Assembly: GCF_965662675.1 (NCBI RefSeq)
Contig: NZ_CBFIIK010000003.1
Coordinates: 13,401 to 77,400 of the forward strand
Source of the DNA: Roseicyclus sp.
GTDB taxonomy: Bacteria; Pseudomonadota; Alphaproteobacteria; Rhodobacterales; Rhodobacteraceae
DNA: 64,000 nt
Direction of reading: 5' to 3'
In this document: piece after piece, positions 7,611 to 62,358 of the stretch
How positions within the stretch are numbered: the first letter of the stretch is position 1
Layout: each line of letters opens with the position of its first letter
Made by a program: the position numbers and the translations under genes
The notes under the pieces: model-generated
What the model was told of the DNA's origin: nothing
What the model saw: only the letters and a program-made list of their open reading frames with translations
Database searches by the model: none

Positions 7611-7634
7611 CCTTCATCTTTCCCAAAATACGCA
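7611..7634 (-). promoter_or_regulatory. 24-nt leader motif (gene orientation TGCGTATTTTGGGAAAGATGAAGG) 9 nt upstream of the folD ATG
   Basis: Identical at 23 of 24 nt to 62335-62358 upstream of dut. Contains an SD-like GAAGG. Confidence 0.4.
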
Positions 7635-7694: not shown

Positions 7695-7735
7695 GCGCGC
7701 GGCGGCGGGGGTTCGACGCCCCCGCCGCCGCGCGC
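7695..7735 (-). terminator. 17-bp perfect GC hairpin just 3' of fhs (terminator or attenuator-like, no U-tract)
   Basis: 7695-7711 pairs perfectly with 7719-7735 around a 7-nt loop. It starts 7 nt after the fhs stop. Confidence 0.35.
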
Positions 7736-7741
7736 CTTCGC

Positions 7742-9418
7742 TTAGAACAGGCCTTCGATCAGACCCGCCTCGTTCAGCCGGATGGTTTCCGAAGCCGGAA
7801 CCTTGGGCAGGCCGGGCATGGTCATGATCTCACCGCAGATCGCGACGACAAAGCCTGCCCCGGCCGACAACCGCACCTCGCGCACAGGGATCGTATGCCC
7901 CTCGGGCGCGCCGCGCAGATTGGGGTCGGTCGAGAAGGAATACTGCGTCTTGGCCATACAGACCGGCAGGTTGCCATAGCCCGCATCTTCCCACGCCTTG
8001 AGTTGCGCACGCACGCCGGCATCGGCGGTCACGCTGCCTGCACGGTAGATGCGCTTGGCGATGGTCTCGATCTTGTCCATCAGCCCCATCTCGTCGGGGT
8101 AGAGCGTGTGGAAATCGGCGCTGCCGCCTTCGGCGAGTTCCGCCACGCGGCGTGCCAGATCCTCGATCCCCGCGCTGCCATGCGCCCAATGCTTGCACAA
8201 GATCGCCTCGGAGCCTTGGGCCGCGACATAGGCTTTGACGGCCTCGACCTCGGCCTCGGTATCGCCCGCGAAATGGTTGATGCCCACGACGACCGGCACG
8301 CCGAAACCTTTGACGTTCTCGATATGGCGACCCAGATTGGCGCAGCCCGCCTTGACGGCATCGACATTCTCGGCCCCCAGATCGGCCTTGGCCACGCCAC
8401 CATTCATCTTCATCGCGCGCACCGTCGCCACGATCACCACCGCGTCAGGCGCAAGCCCCGCCTTGCGGCATTTGATGTTCATGAATTTCTCGGCCCCCAG
8501 ATCGGCACCGAAACCGGCCTCGGTCACGACGAAATCGGCCAGCTTCAGCGCGGTCTTGGTGGCGATGACGCTGTTGCAGCCATGCGCGATATTGGCGAAA
8601 GGGCCGCCATGCACGAAGGCCGGGTTGTTTTCGAGCGTCTGCACCAGATTGGGCTGCATCGCATCCTTGAGCAGCACGGTCATCGCCCCGTCAGCCTTGA
8701 TATCGCGGCAGTAGACCGGGGATTTGTCGCGGCGATAGGCCACGATCATATCGCCCAAGCGACGTTCCAGATCGGCCAGATCGCTGGCAAGGCACAAGAT
8801 CGCCATCACCTCGGAGGCAACCGTGATGTCAAACCCCGTCTGGCGCGGGAAACCGTTCGATACGCCACCCAGCGACACCACGATATCGCGCAGCGCGCGG
8901 TCGTTCATGTCCATCACGCGGCGCCAGACGACGCGGCGCTCGTCGATGCCCAGCGTATTGCCCCAGTAGATGTGGTTATCGATCATCGCCGACAGCAGGT
9001 TATGCGCGCTCGTGATCGCGTGGAAATCGCCGGTGAAATGCAGGTTCATCTCTTCCATCGGCACGACTTGCGCATAGCCGCCGCCAGCGGCCCCCCCCTT
9101 CATCCCGAAATTCGGGCCAAGGCTTGCCTCGCGGATACAGATCGCGGCCTTTTTGCCGATGCGGTTCAGACCGTCGCCCAAGCCCACCGTGGTCGTCGTC
9201 TTGCCCTCACCCGCAGGCGTGGGGTTGATCGCGGTCACCAAGATCAGCTTGCCATTGGGCCGGTCGGCCAGCGAGGTGATGAAATCCTGTCCGATCTTTG
9301 CCTTGTCATGCCCATAGGGCAAAAGCGCCTCGGTCGGAATGCCGAGCTTGTCACCGATCTGTTGGATCGGCTTTTTCTTCGCCTCGCGGGCGATTTCGAT
9401 ATCTGTCTTGAAGGCCAT
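7742..9418 (-). CDS. fhs: Formate--tetrahydrofolate ligase
   Basis: FTHFS pattern ([14 protein letters not shown]). Start set at [11 protein letters not shown] (ATG at 9418), preceded by GGGAAGGGAG. Confidence 0.93.
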
Positions 9419-25352: not shown

Positions 25353-25414
25353 GGATCGCCCTTACGCCCCTTCGCCGCCCGCGTCCATCGCCTCGAAAGC
25401 GCGGATCACCGCGT

Positions 25415-25489
25415 CATCTTTGCTTTTCAAATACTCCGGGGGTGCGGGGGCAGCGCCCCCGTGACCCGAGCCCCGCCAAGGGCGGGGCG
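25415..25489 (-). repeat. Structured repeat, copy A (tail + GGGGGCAGCGCCCCC hairpin + GCCCCGCC/GGCGGGGC hairpin)
   Basis: The reverse complement reads GGGGGCGCTGCCCCC..CCCCCGGAGTATTTGAAAAGCAAAGATG. It lies 3' of hss and about 60 nt 5' of the MFS ATG. Confidence 0.75.
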
Positions 25490-36516: not shown

Positions 36517-36538
36517 GCGCCCCAGAGTCCTTGTGTGC

Positions 36539-36602
36539 GGGGGGCGCTGCCCCCCGACGGCCCTTGGCCGTTCCCCCCGGAGTATTTGGGAAGCAAAGAT
36601 GG
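36539..36602 (+). repeat. Structured repeat, copy B
   Basis: GGGGGGCGCTGCCCCCC - ACGGCC/CTT/GGCCGT hairpin - CCCCCCGGAGTATTTGGGAAGCAAAGATGG, between the convergent slyX and MFS genes. Confidence 0.8.
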
Positions 36603-41649: not shown

Positions 41650-43095
41650 ATGACGATCCGGTTTCTTTTGAACGGGGAACCTGTGGATGTCGATGCGCCC
41701 CCCACCGCGACGCTGCTCGATTGGCTGCGCGAGGAACGGCGGCTCACCGGCACCAAGGAAGGCTGTAACGAGGGCGATTGCGGCGCCTGCACGGTCATGG
41801 TGACCAATCCCGAAGGAACATCGCGCGCGCTCAATGCCTGCATCTTGTTCATGCCCCAACTCGCAGGTCACGCGGTCCGCACGATCGAGGGGATCGCAGG
41901 CCCCGACGGCGCACTGCACCCGGTACAACAGGCGATGGTCGATCATCATGGGTCACAATGCGGCTTTTGCACACCGGGCTTCGTGGTGTCGATGGCCGTG
42001 GCCCATCTGAACGGGCGGCACGACCATGACGATCAATTGGCGGGCAACCTGTGTCGTTGTACGGGCTATGCCCCGATCATTCGCGCCGCCGAAGCCGCAA
42101 CCACGGCCCCCATACCTGACTGGATGCGGGTTGATGCGGCCACCCTGGCGGCCTCACCCTTGTGTGTTTCACAAATATCCCCGGGGGGGCGCCATTCGAG
42201 CGCCACTGGTCCGAGCGACAATGGCGGCCGGGACAGACAGCCCCCCACTTGCCCGACATCCGCCGATGAACTCGCCGCTTGGTATCTGGACAACCCCGAC
42301 GCAACCTTGATCGCGGGGGCCACCGATGTGGGGCTTTGGGTGACCAAGGGCTTGCGCGATCTTGCGCCGGTCGCCTTCCTGAACCAATGCGCCGATTTGC
42401 GCGGGATTGTTGCCGATGACGAAACAATCAGCATCGGCGCGATGACCACAATCGCGGAACTCGGCGCATTCATCGCCGACCGCCACCCCGCCTTCGCCGA
42501 GCTGATCCGCCGCTACGGCTCGGTGCAAGTGCGCAATGCCGCCACCATCGGCGGCAATATCGCCAATGGCTCGCCCATCGGTGACAGCCCACCCGCGCTG
42601 ATCGCCTTGGGCGCAACACTGCACCTGCGCCGGGGCGATATACGGCGCAGCCTGCCGCTCGAGGATTTCTTTCTCGCCTATGGCAAGCAAGACCGCGCCG
42701 CCGGGGAATTCGTCGAGGCCGTCACGATCCCCGTCCAGCCGGACCATTTGCGCTGCTACAAGCTGTCCAAGCGCTTCGATCAAGATATCTCGGCGGTGTG
42801 CGGCGCATTCAACATCACGCTTGAGGGTGGCATCGTGACAGCCGCGCGCATCGCATTCGGCGGCATGGCCGGCACGCCCAAACGCGCCCATGCGGCCGAG
42901 GCCGCGTTGATCGGCCAGCCATGGGCCGACACCAGCATCACCGCCGCGCAAGACGCGCTTGCCGCGGATTTCACCCCGCTCTCGGATATGCGCGCCTCGG
43001 CCGACTACAGGCTGCGCAGCGCCAAAGCCATGCTGATGCGCTGCTTGCGCGAAAGCAGGGGCGAAGATGTGAACGTGCTGGCGGTGCAACCATGA
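41650..43095 (+). CDS. xdhA: Xanthine dehydrogenase small subunit (2Fe-2S + FAD)
   Basis: Starts [11 protein letters not shown], with [11 protein letters not shown] and CRCTGY clusters plus an FAD-binding domain. Confidence 0.92.
42166..42246 (-). repeat. Degenerate inverted copy of the structured repeat, in-frame in the xdhA interdomain linker
   Basis: GTTTCACAAATATCCCCGGGGGGG closely matches the copy E tail GTTTCAAAAATATCCCGGGGGG (one substitution, one extra C and one extra G). It is followed by the GGCGC/GCGCC hairpin and a C-run, and encodes [12 protein letters not shown]... Confidence 0.55.
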
Positions 43096-45434
43096 GCGCG
43101 CATGACAGCCTGCCGCATGATGCGGCCTGCCTGCATGTGACCGGGCGGGCGCGCTATGTCGACGATATTCCCACACCTGCCGATTGCCTGCATCTGGCCT
43201 TTGGGCTCTCGCCAATCGCGCGCGGCACGATCCGCGCCATGGACCTTGCCGCTGTCCGGTCGGCACCGGGCGTGGTCGAGGTGCTGGCGGGGACCGATCT
43301 CGACCCGATGCCCGATTGCGCCCCGGCCGCCCATGACGAGCCGCTCTTGTCGGACGGCACGATCCATTACGCGGGCCAGCCGCTTTTCTTGGTGGTCGCG
43401 ACAAGCCATCTGGCCGCGCGCCGCGCCGCACGGATGGCGCGCCTCGATCTGATCGAAGAGACACCGATCCTCGGCGTCGATGAGGCGCTCGCCGCCAATG
43501 CCCGTTTCGAGGACGGCCCACGCATCTATGCCAAGGGCGATGTCGCCGCCGCGATCGCAACGGCCGATCATGTGATCACGGGACAGATCACCCTTGGCGG
43601 ACAAGAGCATTTCTATCTTGAAGGCCAAGCCGCCCTCGCCTTGCCGCAAGACAACGGCGACATGGTGATCCATGCCTCGACCCAGCATCCGACCGAGATC
43701 CAGCACAAGGTCGCCGATGCGCTGGGCTTGCCCATGCATGCCGTGCGCGTCGAGGTGCGGCGCATGGGTGGCGGTTTCGGCGGCAAGGAAAGCCAAGGCA
43801 ATGCGCTGGCCATCGCCTGCGCCATCGCGGCCGCGCGCAGCGGCCGGCCCGCCAAGATGCGCTACGACCGCGATGATGATTTCGTCATCACCGGCAAGCG
43901 CCATGATATCGTGATCGCATACCGGGTGGGCGTCGATGCGACCGGGCGGGTCTTGGGGCTTGATTTCACCCATTACCTGCGCTGCGGCTGGTCGATGGAT
44001 CTATCGCTGCCGGTGGCCGATCGGGCGATGTTGCATGCCGACAATGCCTATGATCTGCCGGCCGCGCGCATCACCTCGCATCGGTTGCGGACCAATCACC
44101 AAAGCGCCACGGCCTTTCGCGGCTTTGGCGGGCCGCAAGGCATGGTGGGGATCGAGCGGGTGATGGATCATATCGCCCATCACTTGGGCCGTGATCCCTT
44201 GGAGATCCGGCGCCTCAATTACTATCCCGAGGCGCATGTGGCCCGGTCCGAGGCCTCCGGCGGGAGTATTTTTGAAGCAAAGATGGCCAAAGATGCGCCC
44301 CGCATCGGGATCACGCCCTATGGGATGGAGGTGCGCGATTTCGTCTTGCATGACCTGACCCAACGCTTGGCGCAATCTTGCGATTATGCCGGGCGGCGCG
44401 CGGAGATTGCGCGGTGGAACGCGCACCAGCCGGTGCTTAAGCGCGGCATCGCGCTCAGCCCGGTGAAATTCGGCATTTCTTTCACGCTCACCCATCTCAA
44501 CCAAGCGGGCGCGCTGGTCCATGTCTATCAAGATGGATCGATCCAGATAAACCATGGCGGCACCGAGATGGGCCAAGGCCTGTTCCAAAAGGTGGCGCAG
44601 GTGGCGGCAAGCCGCTTCGGCGTCGGCATAGAGCAAATCAAGATCACCGCGACAGATACGGGCAAGGTGCCCAATACCAGCGCCACGGCGGCCAGTTCGG
44701 GCACCGATCTGAACGGGATGGCGGTGCAAGCGGCCTGTGACACGATCCGGGCGCGCATCGCCACGCATCTGGCCGCGGTCCATGGCAATGACGATATCCA
44801 TTTCGGCGATGGCTGCGTCCATATCGGCCAAGATCACAGGCTGAGCTTCCGGGAAGCGGTACAGTCGGCCTATGCCGCGCGCGTCAGCCTATCGGCCACG
44901 GGCTTTTACAAGACACCCGATATCGCATGGGACCGCATCGCGGGCCAAGGGCAGCCGTTCTTCTACTTCGCCTACGGCGCGGCCTGCTCGGAGGTGGTGA
45001 TCGACAGCTTGACCGGCGAGAACCGCATCCTGCGCACCGATATCTTGCATGATGCGGGCGCAAGCCTGAACCCCGCGCTCGATATCGGGCAGATCGAGGG
45101 CGGGTTCGTGCAAGGTGCGGGATGGTTGACCTCGGAAGAGCTGGTCTGGGACGATCACGGACGGCTGCGCACCCATGCGCCCTCGACCTACAAGATCCCC
45201 GCCTGTTCGGACCGGCCGCCGGTGTTCAACGTCGACCTGTGGGACCAGCCCAACCGGGCCGAGACGATCTATCGGTCCAAAGCCGTGGGTGAGCCGCCCT
45301 TCATGCTGGGGATCAGCGTCTTGATGGCGCTCTCGGATGCCTGCGGGGCATGCGGGCCGCATTATCCCGACCTGCAGGCCCCCGCGACACCCGAGGCGGT
45401 ACTTGCGGCGATCGACCGGGCGCGTGGGCCATGA
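43092..45434 (+). CDS. xdhB: Xanthine dehydrogenase molybdopterin-binding large subunit
   Basis: ATGA overlap with xdhA; [24 protein letters not shown] and GGTEMGQG motifs. Confidence 0.95.
44229..44286 (+). repeat. Copy of the structured repeat, in-frame inside xdhB
   Basis: CTCCGGCGGGAGTATTTTTGAAGCAAAGATGG matches the tail of copies B and D. It translates to [11 protein letters not shown] inside a loop. Confidence 0.6.
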
Positions 45435-50889: not shown

Positions 50890-50912
50890 TCCGCGACATC
50901 GGTTTTTGGATC

Positions 50913-50943
50913 GGCCCGCCCTTGTGGCGGGCCGTTTCGTTTG
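50913..50943 (+). terminator. Rho-independent terminator of the BMP gene
   Basis: GGCCCGCC-CTTGT-GGCGGGCC followed by GTTTCGTTT. Confidence 0.75.
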
Positions 50944-50961
50944 GGTGGGGTCGAGACCGCG

Positions 50962-51039
50962 AATTTTCATCCGAAAACTCGGGGGGCGCTGCCCCCGCCC
51001 GTGCCGGGCTCCCCCGGAGTATTTTCGAAGCAAAGATGG
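50962..51039 (+). repeat. Structured repeat, copy D (most complete, with both arms)
   Basis: AATTTTCATCCGAAAACTCGGGGGG-CGCTG-CCCCC-GCCCG/TGC/CGGGC-T-CCCCCGGAGTATTTTCGAAGCAAAGATGG. Confidence 0.8.
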
Positions 51040-51168
51040 CGCTGACGGGGTGCCATTCGGCACGCGTGTCGCTTTCGTGTCGAATTCGGTCGGGTGGGCG
51101 AGGCACGGCTTGCGCCGCTCGGGCAGGTAGGGTCAGCATGTTTGCGCGCTTTGCCCGAAGGACCGGCC

Positions 51169-55405: not shown

Positions 55406-55473
55406 GGGTGGATGGGTGGCATGGCGGCAGGGGTGGTGGCAAGGGGGGGCGATTGAGGCTCTGTTGATGGCAT
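55402..55473 (-). CDS. Candidate 23-codon Pro-rich leader ORF (MPSTEPQSPPLATTPAAMPPIHP)
   Basis: AGGAGG lies 8 nt upstream of the ATG at 55473. The stop TGA overlaps the ATG of the FAD oxidoreductase (ATGA). Confidence 0.3.
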   Translation of the reverse strand: MPSTEPQSPPLATTPAAMPPIHP

Positions 55474-55568
55474 GGATGCCCCCTCCTGACGGCATCGCAA
55501 TGTGCCAATGTGATGTGTGTTGAAGTCATCACAGAAGGAGAGGACATCCATGCCATCAACAGAGCCCC
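55455..55568 (-). ncRNA. Structured leader element: 32-bp stem closing two small hairpins
   Basis: Arms 55455-55486 and 55537-55568 have a 22-bp perfect core. The 3 mismatches become G-U pairs only on the minus-strand RNA. Inner hairpins are TGTGATG/CATCACA and GGCA/TGCC. Confidence 0.45.
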
Positions 55569-55695
55569 CAAAAGAAACCAAAATCTAGGGAAACTCATGG
55601 CGGCAACGATACTTCGTTAACTGGAATATCCCCCCGCGTGGCTCAATCATAAAGTGAAAATTCTTCTGGCATACAAGATCAACATCACCCCCCCC

Positions 55696-56682
55696 TCACA
55701 ACATACTCGGCACAACCAGATCGGGCGGCCTATGGCCATCGGCGAAGGTCTTGATGTTGATCAGCACCTTCTCGCCCATCTCGATGCGGCCCTCTTTCGT
55801 AGCCGATCCCATATGGGGCAAGAGCACCACGTTGGGCAGTTCGCGCAGGCGGGGGTTCACCTCGCGGCCGCGCTCGAAGACGTCGAGGCCCGCGCCGCCG
55901 ATCTCGCCTGCGCGCAGCATGCGGGTCAGCGCGTTCTCGTCGATCACTTCCCCGCGCGAGGTGTTCACGATCACCGCCGAGGGTTTCATCAGCTTCAACC
56001 GCCGCGCGTTGAGCAGGTGGAAGGTCGAGGGCGTGTGCGGGCAATTGATCGAGATCACATCCATCCGCGACAACATCTGGTCAAGGCTGTCCCAATAGGT
56101 CGCCTCGAGCGCGGTCTCGATATCGGCATGAAGGCGGCGGCGGTTGTGGTAATGCACCTGCATCCCAAAGGCACGCGCGCGGCGTGCCACGGCCTGACCG
56201 ATGCGGCCCATGCCCAAGATGCCCAAGCGCTTGCCGCCGACGCGCCCACCCATGAAGGCCGTGGGGGCCCAGCCCTCCCAGCGGCTTTCCTGCATCACCG
56301 CCATCCCCTCGGGCAAGCGGCGCAAGACGGCCAGGATCAGCGCCATCGCCATATCGGCGGTGTCATCGGTCATCACGCCCGGCGTGTTCGACACCAGAAC
56401 GCCGCGCTGGCGGGCCGTCGCCACATCGATATGATCGACGCCTGCGCCGTAATTGGCGATCAGCTTCAGCCGCTCACCCGCCTGCGCCAGCATCGCGCCA
56501 TCGATGCGGTCGGTGATACAAGGCACGATCACATCGGCGCGCGCCATCGCTGCGACAAGCTCCGCCTTGGTCATCGGTACATCCGCGCCGCTAAGTTCGA
56601 CGTTGAACAACTCGCTCATCCGCGTCTCGACGACCTCGGGCAACCGTCGCGTCACGACAACACTCAATCGCTGCGCTGGCAT
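55696..56682 (-). CDS. D-2-hydroxyacid dehydrogenase (glyoxylate/hydroxypyruvate reductase type)
   Basis: 328 aa from MPAQRLSVVVTRRLP, with GILGMGRIGQAVA NAD motif and a catalytic R/E/H pattern. Confidence 0.85.
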   Translation of the reverse strand: MPAQRLSVVVTRRLPEVVETRMSELFNVELSGADVPMTKAELVAAMARADVIVPCITDRIDGAMLAQAGERLKLIANYGAGVDHIDVATARQRGVLVSNTPGVMTDDTADMAMALILAVLRRLPEGMAVMQESRWEGWAPTAFMGGRVGGKRLGILGMGRIGQAVARRARAFGMQVHYHNRRRLHADIETALEATYWDSLDQMLSRMDVISINCPHTPSTFHLLNARRLKLMKPSAVIVNTSRGEVIDENALTRMLRAGEIGGAGLDVFERGREVNPRLRELPNVVLLPHMGSATKEGRIEMGEKVLINIKTFADGHRPPDLVVPSML

Positions 56683-60748: not shown

Positions 60749-60813
60749 CCTTCTTCGTTTCAAAAATATCCCGGGGGGAACACCCGGCACGGGTGTGGGG
60801 GGCAGCGCCCCCC
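60749..60813 (-). repeat. Structured repeat, copy E
   Basis: The reverse complement reads GGGGGGCGCTGCCCCCC-ACACCCG/TGC/CGGGTGT-TCCCCCCGGGATATTTTTGAAACGAAGAAGG. It abuts the stop codon of the moeB-like gene. Confidence 0.8.
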
Positions 60814-62334: not shown

Positions 62335-62358
62335 CCTTCATCTTTCCAAAAATACGCA
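62335..62358 (-). promoter_or_regulatory. 24-nt leader motif (gene orientation TGCGTATTTTTGGAAAGATGAAGG) 7 nt upstream of the dut ATG
   Basis: Identical at 23 of 24 nt to 7611-7634 upstream of folD. Confidence 0.4.

Follow-up and report, generated by a model that had tools for sequence, protein, structure and literature searches.

The 64,000-nt stretch of a Roseicyclus sp. contig analysed here (the window; coordinates are window positions unless a locus, marked L, is named) contains eight copies of a short modular repeat, among them copy D between a Bmp gene and a DAO/FAO_M/GCV_T gene. We interpret this element, on balance, as a non-coding, DNA-level dispersed repeat of the REP/BIME/REPIN kind that is common to Rhodobacterales. 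The interpretation is drawn from the Watson–Crick palindromes of the element, its indifference to orientation, the harmless sites that it occupies, its inverted doublets, the swapping of its modules, its uniformity within a genome and the translation of copies that lie inside genes.

An earlier note on the window had described a REP/RPE-like family of structured repeats with at least four intergenic copies, and both the copies and the family are borne out. The tail pattern GGAGTATTTNNGAAGCAAAGATG (up to three mismatches) has four matches in the window against 0.00 expected, and the head string GGGGGCGCTGCCCCC has four against 0.07. A covariance model (CM) trained on 22 foreign short-form copies and copy A, with which the window was scanned with filters off, detected exactly eight places, namely the four noted earlier and four that had been missed; six of the eight are extragenic (Table 1). 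As copy A belongs to the training set, its score of 61.8 bits is not independent. A degenerate tail that had been claimed at 55612–55637 did not survive the searches, matching neither the tail hidden Markov model (HMM) at E ≤ 100 nor the CM at E ≤ 10.

We derived the anatomy of the element from 128 copies defined by pattern and from 61 tails that were located, in about 0.94 Mb of flanks, without regard to heads. Its constant module is a non-palindromic tail, GGRR-TATTT-N4-(C/A)AAGAWGAAR, in front of which the heads are interchangeable: the 61 independently found tails carry a type-1 head with various loops, a type-2 head or none. Type 1, the commonest head, reads NN-G(n)-C-NNN-G-C(n)-N'N' (loops include CGCTG, CTCTG, CTTTG, CGCCG and CTGTCTG) and is followed by an NNA linker or a second hairpin and then by a second C(n). 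Type 2 reads (A/C)TGCCTCCGGCGGG, and headless tails have the form TGAG/TGCG-TATTT. The G-run and both C-runs are equal in length in 101 of the 128 copies (4/4/4, 5/5/5 or 6/6/6), copy by copy within one genome. At least 17 of these 128 seed copies (about 13%) have an inverted tail 32–59 nt downstream, so that two units stand tail to tail and a larger palindrome results. The arms of such doublets covary and share idiosyncrasies while their two heads differ, and two copies in Aliiroseovarius (L115) have the loop between their arms in opposite orientations.

The stems of the element are purely Watson–Crick. Short-form copies have two further base pairs, formed between the dinucleotide 5′ of the G-run and that 3′ of the first C-run; these pairs were counted by script and in the gap-free five-base-run subset of the alignment, the full MAFFT alignment mis-registering run-length variants. 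The two flanking pairs are Watson–Crick in 44 and 39 of 47 copies compared with 18.5 and 16.5 expected, values that none of 2,000 permutations reaches, and the formal count of pair types (CG14/UA8 and CG11/GC6/UA1) is reached by none of 500 shuffles. The module-2 stems reported earlier for copies D (GCCCG/CGGGC), B (ACGGCC/GGCCGT) and E (ACACCCG/CGGGTGT) are present as described, and the accompanying proposal that hairpin 2 stays complementary while its sequence changes applies to the family at large: the 75 long-form copies contain 71 distinct inserts, and 52 of them form perfect stems of at least 5 bp where shuffled sequences would give about four. Loops of hairpin 2 are mostly 3 nt long (TGC in 21 copies, TTC in nine). 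Not one G:T pair occurs among 383 stem pairs, which argues for DNA-level palindromy and not for selection on an RNA fold. The predicted folding of the element is no better than that of shuffled sequence (z between −1.8 and +1.2).

The repeat extends far beyond the window, with many further copies in relatives. The exact pattern GGGGCGCTGCCCC-N(0–30)-CCGGRRTATTT, run against contigs with one genome per species, is found in at least 120 genome loci. About 113 of the matches listed are labelled Rhodobacterales, spanning dozens of genera (Paracoccus, Rhodobacter, Ruegeria, Roseovarius, Dinoroseobacter, Leisingera and many others), and the remainder of the matches listed are metagenome-assembled genomes with vaguer or other labels. 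BLAST located copies on Rhodobacterales plasmids, and IMG/VR holds 31 contigs with an exact match, many of which are 14-kb clusters like that of the Rhodobacter capsulatus gene transfer agent (RcGTA). By extrapolation, the density is about one copy per 8–15 kb, or a few hundred per genome. The suggestion that this is not a named element agrees with our searches: Rfam 15 has no match at gathering score in the window, permissive searches around D and B return only chance-level hits (E ≥ 0.89), and the literature, searched by sequence and topic (Rhodobacterales, REP, MITE, intergenic repeat), yielded no description of it.

Copies lie at gene boundaries in either orientation. Placement was assessed for 174 tails using gene calls by a heuristic based on GC content at third codon positions (GC3), which are noisy, and a second frame call made independently. 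In 40 of 174 copies a sense stop codon precedes the head by −1 to 15 nt, in 20 the stop of a convergent gene falls within −2 to +4 nt of the tail end, and in 27 a sense start codon follows 0–15 nt 3′ of the tail. Convergent spacers outnumber divergent ones by 30 to 15 (29 to 5 with the second gene call). Between tandem genes, 40 copies are sense and 36 antisense (34 and 25 with the second call). Thus, the claim that copies follow the orientation of the upstream gene is right for the four intergenic copies described earlier and wrong for the family.

The gene transfer agent (GTA) operon shows the same behaviour at a single site. We inspected 69 RcGTA-type clusters with a usable spacer between the terminase (g2) and portal (g3) genes, by alignment and by a recount independent of stop codons. 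A tail is present in 41 of them (28 sense, 12 antisense, one both) and 28 are empty. The heads are of type 1, type 2 or another kind; L163, L189 and L198 all carry the element, and the close relatives L161/L162, L163 and L164/L165 have the same tail with different heads. L187 contains an antisense copy that is missing from the otherwise near-identical spacer of L177; there is no evident target-site duplication, and the empty site may be a deletion. These results indicate one permissive spacer that has been filled repeatedly and in either orientation. The same region of RcGTA-like clusters (L161–L190 and others) also contains a canonical terminator-like hairpin with a T-run, for example AAGGGCTGCC-GTTT-GGCGGCCCTTTTTCG, right before the portal ribosome-binding site (RBS) and within a presumed single operon; it may act as an attenuator that fixes the proportion of terminase to structural proteins.

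Seven syntenic 22-kb loci of Roseicyclus relatives (XdhB identity 91–78%) provide a view of how the repeat evolves. In almost every Roseicyclus genome compared, the element is present in the slyX/MFS and Bmp/DAO spacers, so that these positions are old. The modules at an old position are nevertheless exchanged. At the slyX site, the window and L123 have GACGGCC-CTT-GGCCGT as their second hairpin, R. marinus has GGCC-TGC-GGCC, L129 has GTCGCG-TAC-CGCGAC, and R. persicicus has a long, different insert. At the Bmp site, head and hairpin are common to the window and to L123 and L126, its closest relatives, while the tail variant of the window differs. Two sites of one genome have tails that are 0.91–0.96 identical in the window, R. 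marinus and L129 (0.65 in L123), compared with averages of 0.64 and 0.58 for the same site between genomes. Tail variants are species-specific “dialects” that are uniform within a genome, and the likeness of tails within genomes together with the swapped modules indicates concerted evolution with module exchange.

Table 1. Copies of the repeat in the window
Copy	Positions	Strand	Composition	CM result	Context
A, short-form type 1	25413–25462	−	C-G5-CGCTG-C5-G, linker CA, C5, tail GGAGTATTTGAAAAGCAAAGATGA; without module 2	61.8 bits	Between hss-like (saccharopine-DH) gene and MFS gene
B, long-form type 1	36537–36602	+	G6-CGCTG-C6, hairpin GACGGCC-CTT-GGCCGT, T, C6, tail GGAGTATTTGGGAAGCAAAGATGG		Most of the 110-nt spacer of convergent slyX and MFS genes; orthologous site filled in Roseicyclus relatives, with hairpins and tails that differ
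D	50979–51039	+	G6-CGCTG-C5, hairpin GCCCG-TGC-CGGGC, T, C5, tail GGAGTATTTTCGAAGCAAAGATGG		3′ of the Bmp gene's own terminator, 5′ of the leader of the DAO/GCV_T gene
E	60749–60813	−	G6-CGCTG-C6, hairpin ACACCCG-TGC-CGGGTGT, T, C6, tail GGGATATTTTTGAAACGAAGAAGG		G-run begins within the TAG stop codon of the ThiF/MoeB-like gene
Tail only, folD	7611–7634	−	TGCGTATTTTGGGAAAGATGAAGG	E = 0.015	fhs-folD spacer; end 9 nt 5′ of the folD start codon (7601)
Tail only, dut	62335–62358	−	TGCGTATTTTTGGAAAGATGAAGG	E = 0.02	Fills the coaBC-dut spacer; end 7 nt 5′ of the dut start codon (62327)
Intragenic, antisense to xdhA	42157–42246	−	Head G6-CTGTCTG-TCCC (degenerate type 1), long hairpin region, C7, tail GGGGATATTTGTGAAACACACAAGG	E = 0.007	Read in frame
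Intragenic, sense in xdhB	44253–44287	+	Type-2 head GCCTCCGGCGGG, tail GGAGTATTTTTGAAGCAAAGATGG		Translated

The window copies illustrate the range of forms and sites (Table 1). The identities that had been given for their neighbouring genes were confirmed by Pfam (saccharopine-DH/hss-like, MFS, SlyX, Bmp, ThiF/MoeB-like and peptidase M3). Copy D had been placed at 50962–51039; its end and identity stand, whereas its start moves to about 50979–50981, the palindrome in front of it being separate from the repeat. The tail-only copies at folD and dut, detected in a repeat search, are near-identical and read TGCGTATTTT(T)GGAAAGATGAAGG. The two remaining copies lie inside xanthine dehydrogenase genes. 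The copy in xdhA, detected by the tail HMM, has orthologues at about 9067–9132 of L123–L129, and the Fe/S–FAD linker into which it is translated is about 18 residues longer than that of 2W3R_A. The copy in xdhB surfaced in the tail search at 44263–44285, inside the open reading frame (ORF) of the large subunit; its peptide sits in a surface loop that varies when compared with the structure from R. capsulatus, motifs akin to it, such as ASGGSFSAKMK and ASGGDIFETEK, occur in XdhB of several genera, and its type-2 head is also found on intergenic copies elsewhere. Intragenic copies in both orientations are not what one expects of a module for RNA 3′ ends but are expected of a tolerated DNA repeat. 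An apparent target duplication at the xdhB copy (CAAAGATGG/CCAAAGATG) was judged coincidental because relatives do not have it.

The earlier note had proposed that the element serves as a terminator, insulator or RNA-stability module, a proposal that fits the family poorly. In its fuller form, hairpins and UAUUU would act as a terminator or attenuator, or as a 3′ barrier against exonucleases, insulating neighbouring genes from each other, and we regard this as unlikely. That 40 of 174 copies begin within 15 nt after stop codons and that copies are enriched between convergent genes would suit such a role, as would the slyX/MFS spacer, where copy B is the only structured sequence present. An alternative fold places a GC stem of 5–7 bp 2 nt 5′ of AGUAUUUU, 40 of 174 copies pass a lenient rule of a hairpin followed by a T-run, and sense copies exceed antisense ones in the GTA spacer. 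However, no more than those 40 of 174 copies pass even the lenient rule, the consensus is stem-GGRR-TATTT, in which GGRR parts the stem from a short and interrupted U-run, orientation between tandem genes is near random with antisense copies in the same spacers, and genuine terminators stand beside the element: the Bmp gene has its own at 50912–50944, 5′ of copy D (GGCCCGCC-CTTGT-GGCGGGCC followed by TTTCGTTT), which is kept in all relatives, and RcGTA-type clusters have a canonical one 3′ of the element. The absence of G:U from 383 stem pairs, a folding energy that does not go beyond that of shuffles and the existence of tail-only and of translated intragenic copies point the same way. The case for a dedicated terminator is accordingly weak. 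A variant of the idea that came from the GTA spacer, with the tail as the upstream half of a terminator, was rejected, a canonical terminator following the tail in only six of 174 copies. As REP hairpins of E. coli stabilise upstream mRNA, a by-product role of this kind is plausible here.

Two further readings concern the tail. It might be the DNA-level binding site of a conserved Rhodobacterales protein, with the copies forming an array for chromosome organisation or DNA exchange; candidates would be a factor of the nucleoid or gyrase/IHF type, like those at E. coli BIMEs, or a GTA-linked uptake or packaging factor. This would account for a non-palindromic tail that is conserved across the order while heads vary, for species-specific dialects that are uniform within a genome, for indifference to orientation and inverted doublets, and for a distribution that coincides with RcGTA-type clusters, in which the g2–g3 spacer is often occupied. 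Yet no protein with this role is known, the tail does not resemble the IHF consensus WATCAANNNNTTR by eye, a density of about one copy per 8–15 kb is far below that of uptake sequences, GTA-spacer occupancy is polymorphic (28 of 69 empty) and nothing links the copies to packaging or uptake, so that we consider the array quite unlikely. The other reading is an intercistronic expression cassette in which the purine-rich end of the tail (AAGAUGAAGG or AGAAGAAAGG) provides the RBS region of the downstream gene and the spacer uncouples or tunes translation. The 27 of 174 tails with a sense start within 15 nt and the tail-only copies that form the spacers before folD and dut, a layout that recurs in Paracoccus denitrificans, agree with it. 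But the majority of copies point at a convergent gene or lack a start close by, antisense copies occur frequently, a good GGAG/GAGG match is often missing from the tail core, and tolerance is the simpler account: in tight operon spacers only insertions that spare the downstream RBS survive. A cassette function is highly improbable.

The reading as a DNA-level repeat has difficulties of its own. It leaves the equal lengths of the G-run and both C-runs without explanation, and the tail is kept across the whole order more than a purely neutral repeat should be. The examined copies stand at the same sites in six to seven of seven to eight Roseicyclus genomes, which fits retained function too, and the sense excess of 28 to 12 in the GTA spacer, although the clusters are not phylogenetically independent, leaves room for orientation-dependent selection. 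Among the copies examined we came upon no clean, recent insertion that shows a target-site duplication, and the copy number per genome is extrapolated from the 64-kb window and seeded 8-kb loci, not counted. Finally, no mobilising enzyme was identified; the sole attempt, a phmmer search with an E. coli RAYT sequence, found no match among the ORFs of 1.3 Mb of fetched loci, a negative that carries no weight because the query itself failed validation, matching no Pfam family. The tail conservation, the matched run lengths and the modest GTA sense excess keep a functional or protein-recognition reading alive.

If the element is a DNA-level repeat, as we favour, we envisage the following course of events. 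Copies would land, or survive, only at harmless sites, that is, in the few bases that separate a stop codon from the following gene, chiefly at gene 3′ ends, and sometimes in flexible protein loops, and once placed they would persist for long periods. Heads and tails would be overwritten repeatedly from other copies in the same genome by gene conversion or recombination, possibly helped by a trans-acting, hairpin-recognising enzyme that reads the tail. Template switching at quasi-palindromes is a known mutational mechanism; inside the hairpins it would keep stems perfectly Watson–Crick and would produce “compensatory” changes in a single step, with no need for selection on RNA structure. Effects at the RNA level would be side effects of stable hairpins that come to lie just past stop codons when transcribed, and in some spacers (coaBC-dut, fhs-folD) the purine-rich tail end may happen to sit where an RBS is needed. 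We infer both this copying mechanism and the neutrality of the element, whereas its anatomy, distribution, placement, occurrence in both orientations, module swapping, uniformity within genomes and intragenic copies are shown. The order-wide conservation of the tail implies that something reads it, be it protein or RNA machinery. A bolder version can also be put forward: the dialects would be recognised by a conserved Rhodobacterales factor that copies or converts the units, in a vertically inherited partnership like that of REPIN and RAYT, or would be a GTA-tied signal for DNA exchange, and the matched runs would specify either two hairpins that exclude each other or a fold-back triple interaction, for use by the factor. 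We hold this version to be quite unlikely. Should it be correct, it would amount to a new order-wide system that maintains genome repeats and has its own structural logic.

Several other candidates were pursued and set aside. Two head-to-head copies in R. capsulatus (L065) flank a gene in an arrangement like that of a REPtron; this gene encodes ornithine carbamoyltransferase and not a transposase. Promoters of the sigma-70, RpoH and sigma-54 type, sites for IHF, CtrA, DnaA, parS and CcrM, complementarity to the anti-Shine-Dalgarno sequence and motifs of CsrA, Hfq and RNase E were looked for by eye only and dropped as unsupported.

If our reading is correct, one modular repeat shapes gene boundaries across a major marine and environmental order that includes the model organisms Rhodobacter, Cereibacter, Paracoccus, Ruegeria and Dinoroseobacter. 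It would fill spacers from stop to start, sit in the GTA operon and have added peptide segments to xanthine dehydrogenase. In practical terms, it would explain recurrent spurious small ORFs and mis-called gene ends, can confound the prediction of terminators and small RNAs and is readily usable as a marker in strain typing. On the conceptual side, it is probably DNA copying, and not selection on an RNA fold, that gives rise here to “compensatory” hairpin evolution and species-specific uniformity, while the conserved tail points to a factor that reads it.

The head, taken by itself, has a wider range than the tail. In a metagenome scan with GGGGGCGCTGCCCCC alone, 38 of 120 distinct occurrences have the tail, 29 belong to a second family and 53 are of other kinds. 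The second family is tail-less (cca-G5CGCTGC5-tgg-A-C5-GCC-AAGGGC...GCCCTTGG-AAYCCC), with an extended hairpin and a third C-run, and often forms composite palindromes of 200–300 bp just 3′ of stop codons; its contigs (L335, L334, L307, L353, L349, L352 and others) have 47–72% GC and an unlabelled taxon, and it has no Rfam match. An IS3-family insertion sequence (IS; OrfA/OrfB, 37-nt inverted repeats) at 279–1806 of L339 and also in L296 has about 240 extra bp between orfB and the right end, which hold a unit of head and tail-like sequence (ttGGGGGCGCTGCCCCCaaACCCCCGGAATTTTTCGC...CCGCCAGAATGA); this IS could be a vehicle for horizontal spread. A 27-nt exact match to CCGGGGGCGCTGCCCCCGGACCCCCGG, with the tail absent, occurs at 1501–1527 of L361 (Prescottella equi plasmid p2-WH99) and on an Azospirillum brasilense plasmid (NZ_CP059450.1), with two to four occurrences per actinobacterial plasmid, and could reflect either low-complexity hairpins that have converged or a module shared very widely. 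The head grammar therefore reaches beyond Rhodobacterales; the tail appears to be limited to this order.

The surroundings of the copies contain further sequences of interest. Abutting the head of copy D is a near-perfect 22-bp palindrome at 50958–50980 (CGAATTTTCATCCGAAAACTCG; CGAATTTTCG-TA-CGAAAATTCG), which is conserved at this locus only and lies outside the repeat family. It is present in every Roseicyclus relative (about 17955–17980 of L124 and the same place in L126, L127, L128 and L129), and L129 has a second, similar palindrome, GCGAATTCTTGAAAATTCGC. It resembles an operator to which a dimeric regulator of the Bmp/xdh or DAO genes would bind. On the other side of copy D, a leader at about 51067–51140 (GTCGCTTTCGTGTCGAATTCGGTCGGGTGGGCG...CTCGGGCAGGTAGGG), 5′ of the DAO/FAO_M/GCV_T gene (start at about 51169), has no Rfam match and is found in all seven relatives, including R. 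persicicus, which is without the repeat there; it could be a cis-regulatory RNA or a promoter region. The Bmp protein of the window had no record in an exact-protein look-up, and its XdhB is 100% identical to a Roseicyclus sp. protein. XdhB of many Roseicyclus, Rhodophyticola and Gymnodinialimonas (proteins P0017–P0120) has about 35 extra residues in the loop past ASGGS (G-RL-TADLAGRGAVKV...RFGGAHSPVP), which are absent from the window protein and from R. capsulatus xanthine dehydrogenase. The minus strand at 7695–7745 holds a GC hairpin, GGCGCGCGGCGGCGGGGGCGTCGAACCCCCGCCGCCGCGCGCGCC, that is very long and near-perfect; it comes directly 3′ of the fhs stop codon and lies upstream of the tail-only copy. 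The claimed degenerate tail adjoins an AT-rich island (55457–55700) of this GC-rich genome, with a 31-nt inverted repeat that is 94% complementary (55457–55487/55536–55566); the island may mark where a mobile element ends or may serve in regulation. In two of eight Roseicyclus genomes, a parDE toxin–antitoxin pair lies between the MFS gene and dnaE (4241–4790 of L125, 4331–4868 of L129).

Among known systems, the element is closest in kind to REP, BIME and REPIN sequences. Like them, it is a short GC-rich hairpin repeat with apparently hundreds of copies, which lie in spacers in both orientations, often within about 15 nt of stop codons, and form some inverted doublets; positions are conserved between related species, sequence is species-specific, and the repeats are not terminators in themselves. 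Unlike them, the 128-copy consensus has no GTAG or CGTC at the hairpin foot, CGTC occurring only in one subclass of hairpin 2 (GTCGCC...GGCGAC), and as this tag is missing the element does not belong to the REP family proper. Its conserved part is a 24-nt AT-richer tail while the hairpin sequence is free or swapped, its consensus is common to an entire order, and singlets predominate in contrast to Pseudomonas REPINs, doublets accounting for about 13% of the seed copies. Intrinsic terminators share the GC hairpin and the subsequent T-containing stretch at gene 3′ ends, but the element has a 4-nt GGRR spacer, only TATTT, both orientations and genuine terminators alongside. The in-frame translation of copies in tolerant regions, here the xdhA linker and the xdhB loop, recalls the Rickettsia palindromic elements (RPE), which by their description are 100–150 bp long, largely intragenic and restricted to Rickettsia, whereas our element measures 25–90 bp and is mainly intergenic. 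With Correia/NEMIS, ERIC/IRU and other MITEs (miniature transposable elements with inverted repeats) it has in common that it is small, non-autonomous, located at gene boundaries, co-transcribed and, when complete, folded into long hairpins, and its tail-to-tail doublets resemble a small MITE. Single units, however, have no terminal inverted repeats, the inverted parts of doublets are internal, and we found no parent IS with matching ends, the IS3-family element described above (L339/L296; repeats 279–315/1770–1806) being unrelated at its ends; the element is not a MITE in the strict sense. RIME and the Sm-repeats of Sinorhizobium are alphaproteobacterial mosaic intergenic palindromic repeats of low copy number from a different order, and by description the element matches them in being mosaic, palindromic and intergenic and differs from them in copy number and in the order that carries it.

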